Virus record (IMG/VR): IMGVR_UViG_2778261151_000017
Coordinates: 1-10,984 of that record
Length of the DNA: 10,984 nt
Source of the DNA: a virus
Taxonomy: Duplodnaviria > Heunggongvirae > Uroviricota > Caudoviricetes
Strand: one strand, 5' to 3'
Of the stretch, positions 1-10,984 are shown piece by piece. A program made the translations under genes and the position numbers. The first letter of the stretch is position 1, and every line of letters begins with the position of its first letter. A model generated the notes under the pieces. That model worked only from the letters and a program-made list of their open reading frames with translations. It ran no database searches and was not told the origin of the DNA.

Positions 1-648
1 ATGGCAGCGACGCACACACTCCCTCTGGCGTCACCGGGCATGGCACGCATCTGCCTTTACGGGGATTTACAACGATTTGGCCGCCGCATCGACCTTCGAG
101 TGAAAACGGGGTCTGAAGCCATCCGGGCGCTGGCCATGCAGATCCCGGCGTTTCGTCAGAAACTGAGCGACGGCTGGTACCAGGTACGCATTGCCGGGCG
201 TGATGCAGGTGAAACCGAATTGTCTGCCCGTCTTAATGAGCCGCTGGCAAATGGTGCCGTGATCCACATCGTGCCGCGTCTGGCGGGAGCTAAAAGTGGC
301 GGTGTGTTTCAGGTGGTGCTGGGGGCGGCGCTGATTGCGGTGGCATGGTGGAACCCTGTGGGCTGGCTGGGTGCCGCGGCTGTATCGGGCATGTATGCGG
401 CAGGGGCCAGTATGATCCTGGGCGGAGTGGCGCAGATGCTGGCACCGAAAGCCAGGACGCCCACGGCAGCAAGTACAGATAACGGCAAACAGAACACCTA
501 TTTCTCCTCACTGGATAACATGGTTGCCCAGGGCAATGTTCTGCCGGTTCTGTACGGTGAAATGCGCGTGGGGTCACGCGTGGTTTCTCAGGAAATCAGC
601 ACGGCAGACGAAGGGGATGGTGGGCAGGTTGTGGTGATTGGTCGCTGA
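1..648 (+). CDS. I: Tail tip assembly protein I (lambda gpI-like), 215 aa
   Basis: ORF of 215 aa starting with ATG at position 1. The N-terminus (MAATHTLPLASPGMARICLYGDLQRFGRRIDLRVKTG...) and C-terminus (...KQNTYFSSLDNMVAQGNVLPVLYGEMRVGSRVVSQEISTADEGDGGQVVVIGR) match my recollection of lambda gpI; the middle is Gly/Ala-rich and hydrophobic. It lies immediately upstream of J, as in lambda. The identification is from memory. Confidence 0.88.
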   Translation: MAATHTLPLASPGMARICLYGDLQRFGRRIDLRVKTGSEAIRALAMQIPAFRQKLSDGWYQVRIAGRDAGETELSARLNEPLANGAVIHIVPRLAGAKSGGVFQVVLGAALIAVAWWNPVGWLGAAAVSGMYAAGASMILGGVAQMLAPKARTPTAASTDNGKQNTYFSSLDNMVAQGNVLPVLYGEMRVGSRVVSQEISTADEGDGGQVVVIGR

Positions 649-666
649 TGCAAAATGTTTTATGTG

Positions 667-687
667 AAACCGCCTCCGGGCGGTTTT
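667..687 (+). other. GC-rich hairpin in the I-J intergenic spacer (possible attenuator or RNA stability element)
   Basis: aaaccgcc (667-674), loop tccg, ggcggttt (679-686) form an 8-bp stem, followed by a T-rich stretch (tttt a tcg ttt). It sits between the I stop (646-648) and the J ribosome-binding site GGAG (697-700). Confidence 0.3.
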
Positions 688-708
688 ATCGTTTATGGAG
701 CATGACGA

Positions 709-3700
709 ATGGGTAAAGGCAGCAGTAAGGGGCATACCCCGCGCGAAGCGAAGGACAACCTGAAGTCCACGCAGTTGCTGAGTGTGATCGATGCCATCAG
801 CGAAGGGCCGGTTGAAGGTCCGGTGGATGGATTAAAAAGCGTGCTGCTGAACAGTACGCCGGTGCTGGACACTGAGGGGAATACCAACATCTCCGGTGTC
901 ACGGTGGTGTTCCGTGCCGGTGAGCAGGAGCAGACACCGCCGGAGGGGTTTGAATCCTCCGGCTCCGAGACGGTGCTGGGTACGGAAGTGAAATATGACA
1001 CGCCGATCACCCGCACCATTACGTCTGCAAACATCGACCGTCTGCGCTTTACCTTCGGTGTGCAGGCACTGGTGGAAACCACCTCAAAGGGGGACCGGAA
1101 TCCATCGGAAGTCCGCCTGCTGGTTCAGATACAACGTAACGGTGGCTGGGTGACGGAAAAGGACATCACCATTAAGGGCAAAACCACCTCGCAGTATCTG
1201 GCCTCGGTGGTGGTGGATAACCTGCCGCCGCGCCCGTTCAGTATCCGGATGCGCAGAATGACGCCGGACAGCACCACAGACCAGTTGCAGAACAAAACGC
1301 TCTGGTCGTCATACACCGAAATTATCGATGTGAAACAGGGCTACCCGAACACGGCACTGGTCGGCGTACAGGTGGATTCGGAGCAGTTCGGCAGCCAGCA
1401 GGTGAGCCGTAATTATCATCTTCGCGGGCGCATTCTGCAGGTGCCGTCGAACTATAACCCGCAGACGCGACAATACAGCGGTATCTGGGACGGAACGTTA
1501 AAACCAGCATACAGCAACAACATGGCCTGGTGTCTGTGGGATATGCTGACCCACCCGCGCTACGGCATGGGAAAACGTCTTGGTGCGGCGGATGTGGACA
1601 AATGGGCGCTGTATGTCATCGGCCAGTACTGCGACCAGTCAGTGCCGGACGGCTTTGGCGGCACGGAGCCGCGCATCACCTGTAATGCGTACCTGACCAC
1701 ACAGCGCAAGGCGTGGGATGTGCTCAGTGATTTCTGCTCGGCGATGCGCTGTATGCCGGTATGGAACGGGCAGACGCTGACGTTCGTGCAGGACCGACCG
1801 TCGGATAAGGTGTGGGCCTATAACCGCAGTAATGTGGTGATGCCGGATGATGGTGCGCCGTTCCGCTACAGTTTCAGCGCCCTGAAAGACCGCCATAATG
1901 CCGTTGAGGTGAACTGGATTGACCCGGATAACGGCTGGGAGACGGCGACAGAGCTTGTTGAAGATACGCAGGCCATTGCCCGTTACGGTCGTAACGTCAC
2001 GAAGATGGATGCCTTTGGCTGTACCAGCCGGGGGCAGGCGCACCGCGCCGGGCTGTGGCTGATTAAAACGGAACTGCTGGAAACGCAGACCGTGGACTTC
2101 AGCGTGGGTGCGGAAGGGCTTCGCCATGTACCGGGGGATGTCATTGAAATCTGCGATGATGACTATGCGGGTATCAGCACCGGCGGGCGCGTGCTGGCGG
2201 TGAACAGCCAGACCCGGACGCTGACGCTCGACCGTGAAATCACGCTGCCATCCTCCGGTACCACGCTGATAAGCCTGGTTGACGGTCAGGGTAATCCGGT
2301 CAGCGTGGAGGTCCAGTCCGTCACCGACGGCGTGAAGGTGAAAGTGAGCCGTGTTCCTGACGGCGTTGCAGAATACAGCGTGTGGGGGCTGAAGCTGCCG
2401 ACGCTGCGCCAGCGCCTGTTCCGCTGCGTGAGTATCCGTGAGAACGACGACGGCACGTATGCCATCACCGCCGTGCAGCATGTACCGGAAAAAGAGGCCA
2501 TCGTGGATAACGGGGCGCACTTTGACGGCGACCAGAGCGGCACGGTAAATGGTGTCACGCCGCCAGCGGTGCAGCACCTGACTGCCGAAGTCACCGCAGA
2601 CAGCGGGGAATATCAGGTGCTGGCGCGCTGGGACACGCCGAAGGTGGTGAAGGGCGTGAGTTTCCTGCTTCGCCTGACCGTGGCAGCGGATGACGGCAGT
2701 GAGCGGCTGGTCAGCACGGCCCGGACGGCGGAAACCACATACCGCTTCACGCAACTGGCGCTGGGGAACTACAGGCTGACAGTCCGGGCGGTAAATGCGT
2801 GGGGACAGCAGGGCGATCCGGCATCGGTATCGTTCCGGATTGCCGCACCGGCAGCGCCGTCTCGGATTGAGCTGACGCCGGGCTATTTTCAGATAACCGC
2901 CACGCCGCATCTTGCGGTTTATGATCCGACGGTACAGTTTGAGTTCTGGTTCTCGGAAAAGCGGATTGCGGATATCAGGCAGGTTGAAACCACAGCCCGC
3001 TATCTTGGTACGGCGCTGTACTGGATAGCCGCCAGTATCAATATCAAACCGGGCCATGATTATTACTTTTATATCCGCAGTGTGAACACCGTTGGCAAAT
3101 CGGTATTCGTGGAGGCTGTTGGTCAGCCGAGTGATGATGCATCCGGCTATCTGGATTTTTTCAAAGGCGAGATAGGGAAAACCCATCTGGCTCAGGAGCT
3201 GTGGACGCAGATTGATAACGGTCAGCTTGCGCCTGACCTGGCTGAAATCAGGACGTCCATTACGGATGTCAGCAATGAAATCACACAGACCGTCAATAAG
3301 AAACTGGAAGACCAGAGTGCAGCGATCCAGCAGATACAGAAGGTTCAGGTTGATACAAATAATAACCTGAACAGCATGTGGGCAGTGAAGCTGCAGCAGA
3401 TGCAGGACGGACGCCTTTATATTGCGGGTATCGGTGCCGGTATTGAGAACACCCCTGACGGCATGCAGAGTCAGGTGCTGCTGGCGGCGGACAGGATTGC
3501 GATGATTAATCCTGCAAATGGCAACACAAAACCGATGTTTGTTGGTCAGGGTGATCAGATATTCATGAATGACGTGTTCCTGAAACGCCTGACGGCTCCC
3601 ACCATTACCAGCGGTGGAAATCCGCCGGCATTTTCCCTGACACCGGACGGAAAGCTGACCGCTAAAAATGCGGATATCAGTGGCAGTGTGAATGCGAACG

Positions 3701-4206
3701 CCGGGACGCTCAACAATGTCACGGTAAATGAAAACTGTACGATTAAGGGCATGCTGGAGGCGACTCAGGTCAGAGGTGACTTCGTTAAAGCTGTATCCAA
3801 ATCATTCCCGAAACAGGCTGGTACGTGGGGTAATACGGAAACACCAAACGGGACGGTTACAGTCACCATCAGCGATGATCATAACTTTGACCGTCAAATC
3901 ATTATTCCGCCCATTATCTTTAACGGAATAGCGTATAGCGATCCGGGAAGTGGTAATAACCCGGGAGGTACAAGATACACGGGTTATGGTTTTGAAGTTC
4001 GCAAAAACGGCGTATTAATCGCATCCAGAGAAACTAAAGGGGCCATTCCCGGTAGTTACAGTGCAGTTATTGATATGCCGAGTGGCAGGGGAAGCGTCAC
4101 TCTGGAGTTTAAGATTTTCCAGAAAGGCAATCAGGGGGCAGGCAATATCACCGACTGTACGGTGATTGTGACCAAAAAAGCCGCTTCCGGCATCAGTATT
4201 CGTTGA
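709..4206 (+). CDS. J: Tail tip host-specificity protein / central tail fibre J (lambda gpJ-like), 1165 aa
   Basis: ORF of 1165 aa with GGAG 8 nt upstream of the ATG. The N-terminal and central sequence ([34 protein letters not shown]..., [37 protein letters not shown]...) matches my recollection of lambda J. The size is close to lambda J (about 1130 aa) and it follows I. The C-terminal part (after about nt 3200) is the region I am least able to match from memory. Confidence 0.92.
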
Positions 4207-4224
4207 AATATTTATAACCCCAAT

Positions 4225-4252
4225 AAAGGGCGTCAGGAATGACGCCTTTTTT
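4225..4252 (+). terminator. Rho-independent terminator-like hairpin downstream of J
   Basis: Stem ggcgtca (4229-4235), loop ggaa, tgacgcc (4240-4246), extendable by A:U pairs, followed by tttttt (4247-4252). It starts 19 nt after the J stop codon. Confidence 0.6.
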
Positions 4253-4276
4253 ATTGCAGAAAAGCGAGAGGTAATT

Positions 4277-4876
4277 ATGCGTAAAGTTTGTGCAGCAATT
4301 TTGTCCGCAGCCATTTGTCTGGCCGTATCCGGTGCGCCTGCATGGGCGTCTGAACATCAGTCCACGCTGAGCGCGGGGTATCTTCATGCCTCGACGAACG
4401 TCCCCGGCAGTGATGATCTGAACGGGATTAACGTGAAATACCGTTATGAGTTTACGGACACACTGGGGCTGGTGACGTCATTCAGCTATGCAGGAGACAA
4501 GAATCGCCAGCTGACCCGTTACAGCGATACCCGCTGGCATGAAGATTCCGTTCGTAACCGCTGGTTCAGCGTAATGGCGGGGCCGTCTGTGCGCGTGAAT
4601 GAATGGTTCAGCGCGTATGCGATGGCGGGTGTGGCTTACAGCCGTGTGTCGACTTTCTCCGGGGATTATCTTCGCGTAACTGACAACAAGGGGAAAAAGC
4701 ACGATGTGCTGACCGGAAGTGATGACGGTCGCCACAGCAACACGTCTCTGGCGTGGGGGGCTGGCGTGCAGTTTAACCCGACCGAATCCGTGGCCATTGA
4801 TATTGCTTATGAAGGCTCCGGCAGTGGTGACTGGCGCACTGACGGTTTCATCGTGGGTGTCGGTTATAAATTCTGA
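4277..4876 (+). CDS. lom: Lom outer-membrane protein (Ail/Lom family beta-barrel), 199 aa
   Basis: ORF of 199 aa with ribosome-binding site GAGAGG (4266-4271) 5 nt before the ATG. The N-terminus is signal-peptide-like (MRKVCAAILSAAICLAVSGAPAWA) and the protein ends in an aromatic residue (...GVGYKF), typical of outer-membrane beta-barrels. Sequence and position (between J and stf) match lambda lom as I recall it. Confidence 0.9.
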   Translation: MRKVCAAILSAAICLAVSGAPAWASEHQSTLSAGYLHASTNVPGSDDLNGINVKYRYEFTDTLGLVTSFSYAGDKNRQLTRYSDTRWHEDSVRNRWFSVMAGPSVRVNEWFSAYAMAGVAYSRVSTFSGDYLRVTDNKGKKHDVLTGSDDGRHSNTSLAWGAGVQFNPTESVAIDIAYEGSGSGDWRTDGFIVGVGYKF

Positions 4877-4902
4877 TTAGCCAGGTAACACAGTGTTATG
4901 AC

Positions 4903-4929
4903 AGCCCGCCGGTTCAGGCGGGCTTTTTT
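4903..4929 (+). terminator. Rho-independent terminator-like hairpin downstream of lom
   Basis: Stem agcccgcc (4903-4910), loop ggttca, ggcgggct (4917-4924) is a perfect 8-bp GC-rich stem followed by ttttt (4925-4929). It lies 27 nt after the lom stop and just before the stf start. Confidence 0.6.
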
Positions 4930-4940
4930 GTGGGGTGAAT

Positions 4941-7900
4941 ATGGCAGTAAAGATTTCAGGTGTACTGAAAGACGGCACAGGAAAACCGGTACAGAACTGC
5001 ACAATCCAGCTGAAAGCAAAACGTAACAGCACCACGGTGGTGGTGAACACGCTGGCCTCAGAAAATCCGGATGAAGCCGGGCGTTACAGCATGGACGTTG
5101 AGTACGGGCAGTACAGCGTTATTCTGTTGGTGGAAGGCTTCCCGCCGTCACATGCCGGGACCATCGCCGTGTATGAAGATTCCCGACCCGGTACGCTGAA
5201 TGATTTTCTCGGTGCCATGACGGAGGATGATGCCCGTCCTGAGGCACTGCGCCGTTTTGAACTGATGGTGGAAGAGGTGGCGCGTAACGCGTCCGCGGTG
5301 GCACAGAACACGGCAGCCGCGAAGAAGTCAGCCAGCGATGCCGGCACATCAGCCCGTGAGGCGGCAACCCATGCGACTGATGCTGCAGGCTCAGCACGCG
5401 CAGCCAGCACGTCAGCCGGACAGGCCGCTTCGTCGGCTCAGTCAGCGTCTTCCAGCGCAGGAACGGCATCAACAAAGGCCACTGAAGCGGAAAAAAGTGC
5501 TGCCGCTGCAGAGTCCTCAAAAAGCGCGGCGGTCACCAGTGCCGCTGCGGCGAAAACGTCAGAAACGAATGCGGCAGCGTCACAACAATCAGCAGCCACT
5601 TCTGCATCCGCCGCGACCACGAAGGCGTCAGAAGCAGCCACCTCAGCCCGGGATGCGGCGGCCTCAAAAGAGGCAGCGAAATCATCAGAAACGAACGCAT
5701 CATCAAGCGCCAGTAGTGCCGCTTCCTCGGCAACGGCGGCAGGAAATTCCGCGAAGGCGGCAAAAACGTCCGAGACGAACGCCAGGTCTTCTGAAACGGC
5801 AGCGGGACAGAGTGCCTCAGCTGCGGCAGGCTCAAAAACAGCGGCTGCATCATCTGCCAGTGCCGCATCAACAAGTGCCGGGCAGGCCTCAGCCAGTGCC
5901 ACCGCTGCCGGAAAGTCGGCAGAAAGTGCCGCATCGTCTGCTTCAACAGCCACAACGAAGGCTGGCGAAGCCACTGAACAGGCCAGCGCAGCAGCGAGGT
6001 CAGCTTCCGCAGCGAAGACATCCGAAACGAACGCGAAAGCGTCGGAAACCCGTGCAGAATCCTCAAAAACGGCTGCCGCATCGTCAGCCAGTTCGGCGGC
6101 GTCATCGGCATCATCGGCGTCTGCTTCAAAAGATGAGGCGACCATACAGGCGTCAGCAGCGAAGGGCAGCGCCACGACGGCATCCACGAAGGCGACAGAG
6201 GCTGCTGGTAGTGCGACGGCAGCAGCTCAGAGCAAAAGTACGGCGGAATCTGCAGCAACGCGCGCTGAGACAGCGGCAAAACGGGCAGAGGATATTGCAT
6301 CCGCCGTGGCGCTTGAGGATGCGAGCACGACGAAAAAGGGGATAGTACAGCTCAGTAGTGCGACTAACAGCACGTCTGAAACGCTGGCGGCAACGCCAAA
6401 GGCAGTAAAATCAGCCTATGACAATGCAGAGAAACGTCTGCAGAAAGACCAGAACGGCGCTGATATACCCGATAAGGGACGCTTCCTGAACAACATTAAC
6501 GCGGTCAGTAAAACAGACTTTGCTGATAAGCGTGGTATGCGTTATGTGCGGGTTAACGCTCCTGCAGGTGCAACATCTGGAAAATATTACCCTGTTGTTG
6601 TTATGCGTTCTGCTGGCTCAGTAAGCGAACTGGCATCAAGGGTCATTATCACCACGGCAACGCGAACCGCAGGCGATCCGATGAATAACTGCGAGTTTAA
6701 CGGATTTGTTATGCCTGGTGGCTGGACTGACAGGGGGCGTTATGCTTATGGAATGTTCTGGCAATATCAAAACAATGAACGAGCCATCCACTCAATAATG
6801 ATGAGTAATAAGGGCGATGATTTGCGCTCTGTGTTCTATGTTGATGGCGCTGCTTTCCCTGTTTTTGCGTTTATCGAAGATGGCCTGTCAATATCCGCAC
6901 CTGGTGCTGATCTCGTTGTTAATGATACGACCTATAAGTTTGGGGCAACAAATCCGGCGACTGAATGTATCGCGGCGGACGTTATCCTTGATTTTAAGAG
7001 TGGGCGTGGTTTTTATGAGTCTCATTCGTTAATCGTTAACGATAACTTGTCGTGCAAAAAACTTTTTGCCACAGACGAAATTGTAGCGCGTGGTGGTAAT
7101 CAGATTCGAATGATAGGTGGGGAGTATGGGGCATTATGGCGTAATGATGGCGCTAAAACTTACCTGCTGCTTACCAATCAAGGTGATGTTTATGGTGGCT
7201 GGAATACATTAAGACCGTTTGCTATTGATAACGCAACCGGCGAACTGGTTATTGGAACCAAACTGTCCGCAAGTCTGAACGGTAATGCATTAACAGCAAC
7301 AAAGCTGCAAACGCCAAGACGGGTTTCTGGTGTTGAGTTTGATGGTTCCAAAGATATTACTTTAACCGCCGCGCATGTGGCTGCTTTTGCCAGAAGGGCA
7401 ACGGATACATATGCCGATGCGGATGGTGGCGTTCCCTGGAATGCCGAATCAGGCGCTTATAATGTCACCCGCTCTGGCGACAGCTATATTCTGGTTAACT
7501 TCTATACCGGAGTCGGAAGTTGCCGGACCTTGCAGATGAAGGCGCATTACAGAAATGGTGGTCTGTTCTACCGTTCTTCAAGAGACGGTTATGGTTTTGA
7601 GGAAGACTGGGCAGAAGTTTATACCTCGAAAAATCTTCCACCAGAAAGCTACCCAGTCGGCGCACCAATCCCGTGGCCATCAGATACCGTTCCGTCTGGT
7701 TATGCCCTGATGCAGGGGCAGACTTTTGACAAATCTGCCTACCCGAAACTTGCAGCCGCTTATCCGTCAGGCGTGATCCCTGATATGCGTGGCTGGACGA
7801 TTAAGGGCAAGCCCGCCAGTGGTCGTGCCGTATTGTCTCAGGAACAGGACGGCATAAAATCGCATACCCACAGCGCCAGCGCATCCAGTACTGATTTGGG

Positions 7901-8342
7901 GACGAAAACCACATCGTCGTTTGATTACGGCACTAAATCCACGAATAACACTGGTGCGCATACCCATAGTATTAGCGGGACCGCAAATAGTGCCGGCGCG
8001 CACCAACACAAGAGTTCCGGTGCATTTGGTGGCACGAACACGAGCATTTTCCCTAATGGTTATACCGCGATTTCAAATCCAAGCGCGGGGATTATGAGCA
8101 CAACAAGCGGTAGTGGCCAGACTCGTAATGCAGGGAAGACATCATCAGATGGTGCTCATACCCACTCGCTGTCCGGCACTGCTGCAAGCGCAGGCGCACA
8201 TGCACATACTGTCGGTATTGGTGCTCATACGCACTCCGTTGCGATTGGCTCACATGGACACACCATCACCGTTAACGCTGCGGGTAACGCGGAAAACACC
8301 GTCAAAAACATCGCATTTAACTATATTGTGAGGCTTGCATAA
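4941..8342 (+). CDS. stf: Side tail fibre protein Stf (lambda Stf-like), intact, about 1133 aa
   Basis: One continuous ORF. The N-terminus [26 protein letters not shown] and the C-terminus ...[11 protein letters not shown] match lambda Stf as I recall it. It contains a long Ala/Ser/Thr-rich segment with repeated K(T/S)SETNA motifs, the tail-fibre motif [43 protein letters not shown], and C-terminal His-x-His repeats (GAHTHS, GAHAHT, GSHGHT). I place the start at ATG 4941; the ORF track starts at an in-frame GTG at 4935, which is less likely. Confidence 0.88.
5283..6336 (+). repeat. Low-complexity Ala/Ser/Thr-rich coding repeat region inside stf
   Basis: About 350 codons are dominated by GCN, TCN and ACN codons. 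At least four imperfect copies of a roughly 24-nt unit encoding AAK(T/S)SETNA occur near 5553-5575, 5677-5699, 5763-5785 and 6013-6035. This region generates long spurious ORFs in the other frames. Confidence 0.65.
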
Positions 8343-8926
8343 TGGCATTCAGAATGAGTGAACAAGCACGGACTATAAAAATTTATAATCTGCTGGCCGG
8401 AACTAATGAATTTATTGGTGAAGGTGACGCATATATTCCGCCTCATACAGGTCTGCCAGCAAACAGTACCGATATTGCACCACCAGATATTCCGGCAGGC
8501 TTCGTGGCTGTTTTCAACAGTGATGAGGCATCGTGGCATCTCGTTGAAGACCATCGGGGTAAAACGGTTTATGACGTGGCTTCCGGCGACGCGTTATTTA
8601 TTTCTGAACTTGGCTCGTTACCGGAAAATGTCACCTGGTTATCGCCGGAAGGGGAATATCAGAAGTGGAACGGCACAGCCTGGGTGAAGGATCCGGAAGC
8701 AGAAAAACTGTTCCGGATCCGGGAGGCGGAAGAAACAAAAAACAGCCTGATGCAGGTAGCCAGTGAGCATATAGCGCCACTTCAGGATGCTGTAGATCTG
8801 GAGATCGCAACGGAGGAAGAAACCTCATTGCTGGAAGCCTGGAAAAAATATCGGGTGTTGCTGAACCGTGTTAATACAACAACTGCACCTGATATTGAGT
8901 GGCCGGAAGAACCAGACACAATGTAA
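8342..8926 (+). CDS. tfa: Tail fibre assembly protein / chaperone Tfa (lambda Tfa-like), 194 aa
   Basis: ORF of 194 aa beginning [44 protein letters not shown]..., matching my recollection of lambda Tfa. Its ATG overlaps the stf stop by 1 nt (TAATG at 8340-8344), and GAGG (8330-8333) lies 8 nt upstream. Confidence 0.9.
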
Positions 8927-8940
8927 GCGAAAAAGAAAAA

Positions 8941-8973
8941 CCGCAGACACGACGTATGCAGGACGTGCTGCGG
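8941..8973. terminator. Candidate bidirectional terminator hairpin between convergent tfa (+) and the 252-aa gene (-)
   Basis: ccgcag(a)cacg (8941-8951), loop of about 12 nt, cgtgctgcgg (8964-8973) form a roughly 10-bp stem with one bulge. It is followed by ttt on the + strand and preceded by aaaagaaaaa (8931-8940), which reads TTTTTCTTTT on the - strand, so the - strand direction looks the more canonical. Confidence 0.4.
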
Positions 8974-9092
8974 TTTGGCTAGTAAACTTTTGATAGTGCG
9001 AGTATTGAATGATTTCCAGCCCATTACTCATTTTACGCTTTTCACGCGCAAGAGAAATTGAACTTTATTCCTCTGTCACCACATGACGGGGA

Positions 9093-9851
9093 TTAACATT
9101 CTGGATTTTTTATTTCTAAATCAGATAAAGCATTAATTCTTATTTTTTCTAAGGCTTTATCCATGGCCCCCTTGATTCTGTATCCATAATCATCCGGTTC
9201 TTCATATTCCTGTGGGGACGGATTTGTACCAATATTCTCAATTAATTCATTTAAAATAACTGTTACTTCTTTATTAAGAAGAACTGCTTTAGTTAACATC
9301 ATCTCTGTTAATGCTGTGAAGGCTAGGCTAAGTTTCTGTTGTAGCTCTTTATTTTTTAATTTAAGATCTTCATCGTTTAGTGCTTTATCACGGTCTTCGT
9401 GAGCCTGTTGTACTTCATCCCAAAACAGCTTTTCTTGTTCTTGATTAAAATATCCTTGATAACTATTGGCTACATATGTTGGCATCATGTGAATCTCAAT
9501 AATTTCAAATTCATTATCAGCCCATTTTTTTATACTAAGTAACTGAGTGTAAATGTACTCATACATATCGTACTTTTTTTGCCAGATTTGTTGAGAAATC
9601 CACAACTCAGAAGTAATCTTTTTTTCTATATCTTTGATAGTTGTTGTATTTAATGCTAACTGCTTTCTGAGTATTTCATAGTTAGCGTTGGTAGCAGAAA
9701 TTTTTGCTTTTTCAGTTATAAAAGAAACAATAAAGTTCACTATGAGAGCTGCAATAATAATAGCGAAGCTCAACCCTAAAATCTCTGTGGTTGAGAAATT
9801 AGATGACTGTAATGCTTTGATAAGTTCAAAAAACTGTTTTTCTGTGAGCAT
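9093..9851 (-). CDS. Hypothetical single-pass membrane protein, 252 aa, function unknown (accessory / candidate defence gene)
   Basis: An uninterrupted 252-codon ORF in DNA of about 22-40% GC, where stop codons are frequent by chance, so it is very likely real. A possible ribosome-binding site AAGG lies 4 nt before the ATG (9849-9851) on the - strand. It has one hydrophobic helix near the N-terminus (ILGLSFAIIIAALIVNFIVSFI, about residues 24-45), then a K/E/Q-rich, Trp/Tyr-containing region with coiled-coil character and an acidic C-terminal end. I see no Walker A, HEXXH, HNH or other catalytic motif. Confidence 0.78.
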   Translation of the reverse strand: MLTEKQFFELIKALQSSNFSTTEILGLSFAIIIAALIVNFIVSFITEKAKISATNANYEILRKQLALNTTTIKDIEKKITSELWISQQIWQKKYDMYEYIYTQLLSIKKWADNEFEIIEIHMMPTYVANSYQGYFNQEQEKLFWDEVQQAHEDRDKALNDEDLKLKNKELQQKLSLAFTALTEMMLTKAVLLNKEVTVILNELIENIGTNPSPQEYEEPDDYGYRIKGAMDKALEKIRINALSDLEIKNPEC

Positions 9852-9922
9852 GGTACCTTACCAAAAATTAAGACTGTTATCTATATAAAAATGTTACCCA
9901 AGAGGGATTGTAATGAAATAAC

Positions 9923-9944
9923 AAACCGGCACATTGGCCGGTTT
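9923..9944 (-). other. Intergenic hairpin between the two - strand genes (possible partial terminator, attenuator or processing site)
   Basis: aaaccggc (9923-9930), loop acattg, gccggttt (9937-9944) form an 8-bp stem. On the - strand it is followed by GTTATTTCATTA, which is T-rich but interrupted. I found no convincing sigma70 -35/-10 pair in the 97-nt spacer (9852-9948). Confidence 0.3.
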
Positions 9945-9949
9945 GAAGT

Positions 9950-10984
9950 TCAAGGGGGTGAGATTGTAGAGGCGTTACCTTGTTCTATCACACCAGACCT
10001 AATCTTATAACTACCAAGGATGTTGACCGTTTTATTATTTTTCATCGCGTCAAAAATTAAGCCTATTTCATCAGGATCATTGATAAAACTGGTATCAACA
10101 TAGATCGGGAATGAATCATCACCTGTTGGCTCATGGCAGCTTAACGTTAGCTTATCGGCTGAGCGTTTTATACTATCAATGACAACTTCCAATGTTTGCT
10201 GCTCTGACTTAGCCTTTTCAATTGGGTTCTTGATGATTTCTTGAACCTGACCTTGCGAAAGCTCAATATTGCTGGCCCCGCGGATCGTCACTTTGTCTGC
10301 ATCAGATGCACCTTTAAGAACTCCAGTGTATGCCTTAGCTGTGTGCTCTTGGATACCTTCGGCGCGCTCTATCGTATCAATACCTTCATGTGCTTTTATT
10401 GCAGACAGCATACCATCGCGTAGAATTGTCATCCGCTCGGATTCTGCTCGCTGTTTTGCTTCTTCCAGTTGTAACTCAATAGTTTTGGTTTCGACTTGTG
10501 TCTGATGATCTAAGTAGGACGTACCGACCCATGCGCCGCCTAAAACTAAGACAGCAAACAGGAAACACATTGTTTTCTGTCTTGGGCTCATACCTTGCGT
10601 TACCTTCTCAAATGCGTTACCAAAGGAATCAATAAGTTCTTTAACTGAGGTGATAATTTCTGTGCAGCCAGGATTGATAGTAAAAACCAACTCTGCAGCT
10701 TCTCGATCCTCAGCAGTGAGCTTCTGTAAGTTAGAGGTTTTGTACTTGATTAGAGTAAAAACCTTGTACATCTCAGTTTGAAATTCACAGATACCCTGTG
10801 CCAAACTTGCAGGCAGAGTACCATTATACTTATCTTCATCACCAAAAAATTTGAAATCAATACTTTCTAAGAAGTTTAACTTCAAATTTTCAATGTGGAT
10901 TTCTTCGCCTGAAATAACTCGTCCGAAAATATTTTCTATATCATCAATATCATTGATTTCATAGGCCTGAATTGCATCTTCCAT
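9950..10984 (-). CDS. Hypothetical membrane-anchored protein, 344 aa, function unknown (accessory / candidate defence gene)
   Basis: A 344-codon ORF on the - strand whose ATG is the last three bases of the window (10982-10984), so its promoter and ribosome-binding site are not visible. It has a highly acidic N-terminal region (MEDAIQAYEINDIDDIENIF...), one central hydrophobic helix (MCFLFAVLVLGGAWVGTSYL, about residues 138-157) preceded by basic residues (SPRQKT), then a charged segment with coiled-coil character (IELQLEEAKQRAESERMTILRDG...) and a C-terminal region (...GDDSFPIYVDTSFINDPDEIGLIFDAMKNNKTVNILGSYKIRSG...). I recognise no catalytic motif. Confidence 0.75.
   Translation of the reverse strand: MEDAIQAYEINDIDDIENIFGRVISGEEIHIENLKLNFLESIDFKFFGDEDKYNGTLPASLAQGICEFQTEMYKVFTLIKYKTSNLQKLTAEDREAAELVFTINPGCTEIITSVKELIDSFGNAFEKVTQGMSPRQKTMCFLFAVLVLGGAWVGTSYLDHQTQVETKTIELQLEEAKQRAESERMTILRDGMLSAIKAHEGIDTIERAEGIQEHTAKAYTGVLKGASDADKVTIRGASNIELSQGQVQEIIKNPIEKAKSEQQTLEVVIDSIKRSADKLTLSCHEPTGDDSFPIYVDTSFINDPDEIGLIFDAMKNNKTVNILGSYKIRSGVIEQGNASTISPP

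Follow-up and report, generated by a model that had tools for sequence, protein, structure and literature searches.

The GC step behind tfa in a lambda-like Escherichia coli prophage as the probable left edge of an accessory insert composed of two separate gene modules

What does the abrupt fall in GC content behind the last tail gene of this viral genome mark, and how was the DNA beyond it joined to the tail genes? The window, i.e. the whole stretch of DNA analysed (10,984 nt, positions 1 to 10,984 of IMG/VR record IMGVR_UViG_2778261151_000017), comprises the right arm of a lambda-like prophage, encoded on the plus strand, and then two minus-strand ORFs, here called ORF-A and ORF-B. An earlier sequence-only reading had interpreted the step as a mosaic junction at which foreign DNA was joined to the conserved tail module, and composition, synteny and flanking repeats all speak in favour of this. 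The step very probably marks the start, on the left, of an AT-rich accessory insert of 2.3 kb in a variable slot between tfa and a dinI-like gene, where a lambda-like prophage integrated beside prfC in E. coli has its right end. The slot holds two independently mobile AT-rich single-gene modules coding for uncharacterised membrane-anchored proteins and bracketed by diverged copies of a short element, R. The DNA beyond the junction is thus foreign as had been supposed, but it consists of two separately acquired single-gene modules and not of one block.

The plus-strand genes are I (1-648), J (709-4206), lom (4277-4876), stf (4935-8342) and tfa (8342-8926), the latter coding for a tail-fibre assembly protein (Pfam Caudo_TAP, E = 1.7e-44) and being the last gene of the conserved tail module. 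The tfa region was matched in 4987 of 5426 genomes, and the 3′-terminal ~120-150 nt of the gene (from ~8774-8807) represent a widely common block; orphan 3′ fragments of tfa are present after unrelated fibre genes in UTI89, EDL933, CFT073 and ETEC1721. Rfam has a single match in the window, that of IS009 over its full length (RF02111; 224 bits, plus strand). It covers positions 8685-8883 wholly within the tfa reading frame and was rejected as an explanation of the region; this “RNA family” may be simply the conserved 3′ part of tail-fibre assembly genes. An odd RefSeq name, “nucleocapsid protein” or “capsid protein”, is also met at the 3′ end of tfa, where the feature so named overlaps the end of the gene and the spacer in several K-12-type genomes (H83-H87; matches to 8750-8904).

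The GC step is real and lies inside the 8927-9092 spacer between tfa and ORF-A. In sliding windows the GC content amounts to 0.47-0.52 over tfa and to 0.30-0.36 from ~9000 on. A maximum-likelihood fit of a single change point to the whole window places it at base 8980 (log-likelihood ratio 106; 2-unit support 8816-9003), with support at 8963-9106 for sub-ranges beginning at 6400 or 8342, and the ratio of 106 was unmatched by shuffles of either single bases (maximum 8.6) or 300-nt blocks (maximum 65). The GC content of the genes is 0.603 for I, 0.562 for J, 0.553 for lom, 0.536 for stf and 0.480 for tfa (GC3 0.441), compared to 0.315 for ORF-A (9093-9851, minus strand; GC3 0.269) and 0.404 for ORF-B (9950-10984, minus strand; GC3 0.368), so the cargo is unlike the flanking phage genes (0.48-0.60) in total GC as well as in GC3 (0.27 and 0.37 vs 0.44-0.66 in the surrounding phage genes). 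The codon-adaptation index, calculated with nine adjacent host genes as the reference, changes at the spacer too: it is 0.58-0.79 in the host genes, 0.64-0.66 in I, J and lom, 0.545 in tfa and lowest in the cargo (0.46 in ORF-A and 0.50 in ORF-B). Lines of 60 nt have a mean GC content of 54.7% (sd 7.5) left of 8926 and of 36.8% right of 9093, where they range from 21.7 to 51.7%, in agreement with the values counted by hand in the sequence-only reading for the minus-strand genes. The 63% given there for the tail genes holds for the GC-rich parts of J and stf only and not for the adjoining tfa (48%), so that the local drop, to 31.5% in ORF-A, is about 16 points.

Ranked with 300-nt half-windows, the step in the spacer (0.163) comes after one in J at 2884 (0.173) and before one in stf at 6332 (0.133). 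GC falls from 0.60 to 0.50 around the former position and from 0.61 to 0.49 around the latter, and both steps look like further mosaic junctions preceding the receptor-binding C-terminal parts of the proteins. The Ala/Ser/Thr-rich, low-complexity region of stf at 5251-6400 has 61% GC with a strongly positive AT skew (0.35-0.44) and produces long ORFs that are spurious, in frames other than that of stf and on the other strand too.

About 100 complete E. coli genomes have the tail module from I to tfa as one block, with an identity of 96-98%, and in these it ends at 8904, 9020 or 9037; a finer search gave the same end points, 9035-9038 being the furthest. Positions 1-9037 are the conserved tail module together with R, and homology with most related prophages ends past R. 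Only 28 of the 5426 genomes possess the DNA that follows, from 9038 up to the end of the window, each of them in one copy and in the chromosome, while no genome of the 5426 contains the whole window in one piece. In all five cargo-bearing genomes inspected (Ec-U11, UTI89, LS4, A17 and SCU-306) the cargo is located at prfC beside a dinI-like gene, and at 8342-10984 Ec-U11 has 99.9% identity with the window. The junction zone can be placed at 9038-9062 (no strand): megablast homology with cargo-free or other-cargo prophages stops at 9037, about 25 bases past this point are still loosely common to the prophages carrying Avs2 and sit genes, and the homology of the Klebsiella ORF-A module begins at 9051. 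The join had been expected in the spacer immediately after tfa; it is indeed in the spacer, but 110-135 nt past the tfa stop, at the distal edge of the post-tfa element. At the other side, homology to the window begins at 8300, 8542, 8807 or 8867 in different genomes. The upstream tail-fibre module has been swapped as well in the cargo-bearing lineages, with breakpoints inside tfa at 8542, 8807 and 8867, so that exchange has occurred on both sides of the junction.

The homology break coincides with the distal edge of the left copy of element R (R_L, 8938-9037, no strand), a conserved post-tfa sequence of ~100 bp revealed by BLAST of the spacer against the fetched loci. In the uninterrupted arrangement R is single-copy and has the tfa stop on one side and, on the other, the stop codon of a dinI-like gene in convergent orientation, as in EDL933 (O157:H7), which was taken as the uninterrupted reference since the tfa 3′ fragment, R and the dinI-like stop codon are contiguous there. 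Only in cargo-bearing prophages is R duplicated: in Ec-U11, UTI89, LS4, A17 and SCU-306 one copy follows tfa and the other precedes the dinI-like gene, after which comes prfC. The right copy (15031-15129 in locus L002) begins 2392 bp (2.39 kb) from the start of the left one, and the two make up a direct repeat with 87% identity (88 of 101 aligned positions, longest exact run 28 nt). A search for repeats flanking the junction, as proposed along with the original interpretation, has therefore found one, with its second copy past the window end. The window stops exactly at the ORF-B start codon, so the right R copy, the right junction and the ORF-B promoter lie outside it, the first two being known from the closest genomes only. 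A ~135-bp segment directly left of the right R copy (L002 14895-15030) is common to the prfC-site prophage L005 and is also found near ssrA in CFT073 (L020 4618-4756, 81% identity). R or its hairpin part alone also occurs once or twice per genome in many E. coli (e.g. H115-H124, H155-H173), at sites where nothing is annotated, and K-12 strains retain only a 41-46-bp piece of R.

The hairpin in R_L (8930-8976, minus strand) has a GC core with 8941-8946 paired with 8968-8973, followed by TTTTTCTTTTT (8940-8930). Folding confirmed the hairpin noticed previously at 8941-8973 (z = -3.2 on the minus strand and -2.6 on the plus strand), which is conserved in 12 R copies from different prophages: all 12 of them keep all 12 stem pairs, with one compensatory double change from C-G to A-U. 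Due to the minus-strand TTTTTCTTTTT after the stem, it looks like a terminator of a leftward transcript, and it is likely to serve as the intrinsic terminator of the cargo transcript, namely that of ORF-A in the window and that of the dinI-like gene in uninterrupted prophages. On the plus strand, with just three T after the stem, it is weakly terminator-like. The right R copy has no T-run, so read-through from dinI into ORF-B is conceivable. Just upstream of the dinI-like gene (L002 15397-15418) there is a LexA-box-like palindrome, ACACTGTGTTTGTATACAGTGT (CTGT-N8-ACAG), which suggests SOS control of this gene.

The slot between tfa and the dinI-like gene is occupied differently in other prophages. 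The same tail module is followed directly after R by the anti-phage gene avs2 (AVAST type 2) in ATCC 43886 (L033 1482-5936; tail module 97.4% identical to that of the window) and by the sitABCD iron/manganese transporter genes in MS15047. The slot contains pinR-ydfK-ynaM in ETEC1721 (prfC) and likewise in CFT073 (ssrA), and several hypothetical genes in WCHEC035125 and ET729 (both prfC prophages). R thus precedes the cargo in ATCC 43886 and MS15047, while in ETEC1721, WCHEC035125 and ET729 it follows the cargo. In N96 (prfC) there is nothing past the spacer, a DUF4376 tfa-like gene being followed directly by dinI, and EDL933 has no cargo between the tfa 3′ end, R and dinI; espW and espM2 were seen in the cargo region of the EDL933 prophage. 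ET729 was considered as an exact empty site and rejected, as the alignment shows other cargo between its tfa and R. With the tail module in ~100 genomes and the cargo in 28, the locus shows the presence/absence pattern at one position expected of an accessory insert (moron). Since the cargo of the slot is sometimes non-defensive (sitABCD, or the type III secretion effectors nearby in EDL933), position alone is no proof of an anti-phage role.

The ORF-A module (9051-9897, minus strand) contains the gene at 9093-9851 coding for a 252-aa protein, whose model consists of helices only: a single membrane helix near the N-terminus (~24-46) continues into a very long one. It has no match in Pfam or NCBIfam and no PADLOC or PHROGs family, and structure comparison of the model gave no informative match. 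The family has 32-35% GC wherever it was found, well below the flanks in the hosts examined. Relatives of ORF-A without ORF-B are present in Klebsiella, where tail-tip and tail-fibre genes adjoin them in what is a degenerate prophage or an island region; at a Citrobacter prophage end among dinI, umuDC, SRAP and RnlAB genes; and in a lambdoid viral contig, in convergent orientation downstream of stf and a tfa-like gene. In Citrobacter and the lambdoid contig the gene lies downstream of tail-fibre genes, as in the window. Several relatives from Klebsiella and Citrobacter (L007-L009, L011, L012) are repeatedly followed by an SRAP (YedK-like) gene and lie at prophage ends among umuDC, dinI, RnlAB and EMARD-type genes.

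The ORF-B module (9916-10984, minus strand) contains the gene at 9950-10984 for a 344-aa protein. Its AlphaFold2 model (pLDDT 82) predicts an alpha/beta domain (1-130), a membrane helix (~134-154), a coiled-coil hairpin (169-225) and a C-terminal OB-fold, and the charge around the membrane helix suggests a cytoplasmic N-terminus and a periplasmic OB-fold. The protein belongs to phrog_6191, a PHROGs family with no assigned function. Searches against Pfam and NCBIfam gave weak sub-threshold matches only, profile searches of PDB sequences gave nothing at E <= 1, and for both cargo proteins the best matches in PADLOC-DB 2.0 (E 0.019-0.052) are partial ones to unrelated models (Csx16, a type I specificity subunit, LeoBC). 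In these searches neither protein matched a toxin, exclusion or defence family that is already known. Foldseek comparison with viral structures returned two uncharacterised proteins and OB-fold matches. With the ORF-B alignment profile, 66 proteins were retrieved from a set of 5.8 billion, all of them annotated as “hypothetical”; the relatives of the cargo proteins in this large set are all hypothetical and belong to Enterobacterales, apart from one in Aeromonas. A literature search on the RefSeq protein accessions and on phage PhiR12 found nothing relevant. The family has 40-42% GC in enterics and 34% in Proteus; relatives of either cargo gene are well below the GC content of their flanks everywhere except at the Proteus locus, whose flanks are AT-rich themselves. 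Relatives at host-like composition, which would have spoken against foreign origin, were thus not encountered, both gene families being AT-rich in every host examined.

Relatives of ORF-B without ORF-A are found in PhiR12, Citrobacter, Rac-like prophages, Yersinia and Proteus. In PhiR12 the gene sits between cI and N, in Citrobacter-type prophages directly after a cI-type repressor gene, and in Rac-like prophages after a RacR-like repressor gene, whereas in Yersinia ruckeri it lies past tail-fibre and invertase genes at a prophage end, as in the window. Of the 52 IMG/VR loci with ORF-B relatives 44 have upstream DNA, and in 28 of these a co-oriented HTH and Peptidase_S24 protein gene, representing 17 distinct S24 repressors overall, ends 38-302 nt before the relative; one further locus has a RacR-like protein with HTH_3 only, bringing the number to 29 of 44. 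The repressor-linked position is thus shared by these 29 viral-contig relatives (L043-L079) and by PhiR12 and the Citrobacter and Rac-like loci (L003 6040-7065; L021-L023; L027-L029), with the relatives standing directly downstream of, and co-oriented with, many different repressor genes, but it is not shared by the window copy. The corresponding slot, that of rexAB in lambda and bstA in BTP1, has been described as a mosaic hotspot of abortive-infection genes, which in the lysogen are transcribed from the strong promoter of the repressor gene (PMC8585504). The positions of its relatives suggest that ORF-B is an accessory gene expressed in the lysogen, most plausibly for phage exclusion or abortive infection, and judging by position ORF-B most probably acts in the exclusion of, or defence against, other phages. 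A further-reaching proposal is that ORF-B founds a hitherto undescribed family of prophage proteins, membrane-anchored and encoded by single genes, which exclude or abort other phages and reside in repressor or tail-fibre lysogenic-conversion slots, with ORF-A being a second, unrelated exclusion or membrane-acting moron; we put this forward tentatively, as something rather more apt to fail than to hold.

Between the two cargo genes there is an intrinsic-terminator-like hairpin following ORF-B (9922-9945, minus strand), CAAACCGGCCAATGTGCCGGTTTG and then a T-rich tail, which was found by a scan of the identical L002 sequence (13646-13623). It travels with the ORF-B module in PhiR12, where homology starts from 9916, and is predicted from its sequence to split ORF-A and ORF-B into two transcription units. 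Each cargo gene would then have a terminator of its own, as is usual for morons: the hairpin at 9945-9922 after ORF-B and the R hairpin with its T-run after ORF-A. In a promoter scan, consensus matches (8) did not exceed those in shuffles (8.7 expected), and the region upstream of ORF-B lies outside the window.

How, then, could the junction have arisen? The joins would go back to lambdoid phages, either resident together or infecting, and to homologous recombination of prophages that have their cargo on opposite sides of R, not to transposition: a crossover of the cargo-before-R and cargo-after-R architectures would leave the cargo between two diverged R copies, exactly as seen. The R copies and the conserved 3′ end of tfa would offer shared homology for shuffling cargo and fibre modules, and the R copies could also allow deletion of the insert. 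The varied breakpoints in tfa (8542, 8807, 8867) and at R (8904, 8976, 9020, 9037) suggest repeated exchange rather than one event. ORF-A and ORF-B would presumably both be expressed in the lysogen, and the hairpin with the T-run in R_L would keep the leftward transcript of the cargo from continuing into tfa in antisense.

As several fibre modules precede the same cargo-dinI-prfC end, the latest exchange may have brought the tail module and not the cargo. That the cargo (ORF-A, ORF-B and dinI) is long resident in a prfC lineage, and stf-tfa a newcomer that entered through the tfa 3′ end or R, is a serious possibility, to which we give somewhat less than an even chance. The five inspected cargo genomes share their right end (cargo, dinI-like gene, prfC) while at least three fibre modules lie upstream of it, namely a full stf with tfa, a “tail fiber domain” gene with a 120-nt tfa remnant and a DUF4376 gene with a 384-nt tfa remnant; the starts of homology to the window differ by genome (8300, 8542, 8807, 8867), the tail module of the window is closest to those of prophages lacking this cargo, and no genome has the whole window in one piece. 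Even so, an earlier acquisition of the cargo would still be needed, given that both genes are uncommon and AT-rich and that other genera have them as separate modules, and other prophages at the prfC site (ETEC1721, WCHEC035125, N96, ET729) lack ORF-A and ORF-B. It is improbable, on the other hand, that ORF-A and ORF-B were acquired together as one two-gene system, such as a toxin-antitoxin or sensor-effector operon. They are adjacent, co-oriented and both membrane-anchored in 28 of 28 E. coli genomes, but outside the E. coli prophage all relatives examined stand without the partner gene, the DNA similarity to other elements is interrupted between the genes at 9897 and 9916 (the Klebsiella loci match 9051-9897 with ORF-A only, and PhiR12 matches 9916-10909 with ORF-B and its terminator only), and a terminator hairpin separates them. 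An obligate operon or toxin-antitoxin pair was rejected since the two were never found together in the contexts examined outside E. coli, though they might interact functionally in this one prophage.

Direct repeats on both sides of the insert might also call to mind a self-inserting mobile element (an IS, a transposon or an integrative cassette) with R as its target-site duplication or terminal repeats. This is very unlikely: the 2.3 kb contain two ORFs, neither with a recombinase domain, and no transposase, integrase or recombinase gene, the repeats measure 100 bp and have an identity of no more than 87%, R is already present in a single copy at uninterrupted sites and beside other cargo, and the insert is made of two modules with separate histories. 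As a target-site duplication the R copies are too long, too diverged and pre-existing at other sites, and this candidate was discarded. We give hardly any credence to the idea that the fall in GC reflects the needs of the proteins (Lys/Ile/Asn/Glu-rich, helical, membrane-bound) or strand effects, with no foreign origin or mosaic junction involved. Helix and coiled coil do abound in both proteins, and their genes have a low GC2 (0.26 and 0.35), but GC3 and the codon index fall too, the DNA is polymorphic for presence and absence with a sharp homology break, and other cargo lies at the same point in other prophages, so that the idea is contradicted by the synteny data.

The locus can be compared with known systems. 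Morons are extra genes with their own signals located between conserved genes, according to the work of Juhala and Hendrix (2000) and Cumby et al. (2012) summarised in PMC3573123 and PMC8585504. The junction is of this moron or cargo-slot kind, long known in lambdoid phages (PMC3573123, PMC8585504), while the cargo genes are undescribed. Like lambdoid morons, the cargo is present in some and missing from other, otherwise near-identical prophages, differs from its neighbours in composition, is oriented against the flanking late genes, has a terminator-like hairpin after each gene and occupies an insertion-tolerant position; unlike the usual morons, there are two side by side and a duplicated 100-bp spacer element brackets the insert. 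The slot downstream of the tail-fibre genes is in the lambda b-region position. It resembles the “exchangeable effector loci” of EHEC prophages, reportedly described by Tobe et al. in 2006, in lying between stf/tfa and the attachment-site end and in having cargo that differs by prophage (espW/espM2, sitABCD, Avs2), whereas the cargo of the window is neither an effector, nor a transporter, nor a recognised defence gene. With the defence hotspots of P2/P4-like elements and prophages, which Rousset et al. are said to have reported in 2022, it shares conserved flanks, high-turnover AT-rich genes and some proven defence (Avs2 in the tfa-dinI slot), but it belongs to another phage family, has tfa and a dinI-like gene as flanks and accepts non-defence cargo as well. 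As for rexAB and bstA, ORF-B relatives are likewise directly downstream of, and co-oriented with, 17 different cI-type repressor genes, and ORF-B is, like RexB, predicted to be a membrane protein; in contrast, the window copy follows tfa at the prophage tail end and is not beside a repressor gene, and, unlike rexAB, ORF-B is one gene only, whose product has a single predicted membrane helix and a predicted OB-fold. Judged by families and fold only, there is no likeness of ORF-B to RexA, RexB or BstA (KilA-N), with no Pfam or PADLOC family and no PDB profile match.

As a compositional boundary the step is ordinary, being textbook prophage mosaicism, and matters little. Its value is that of a clean, delimited case in which the tail module, the spacer with its hairpin, the variable slot, the two cargo genes and the diverged spacer duplication can all be told apart, and the diverged R duplication records how the pieces were joined. 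ORF-B represents an Enterobacterales-wide unannotated family, two thirds of whose viral contigs have it in the rexAB/bstA slot. Going by this position, it may be a new exclusion or defence gene of prophages, a candidate that is both specific and cheap to pursue, and one that is carried by UTI89, a standard uropathogenic strain.
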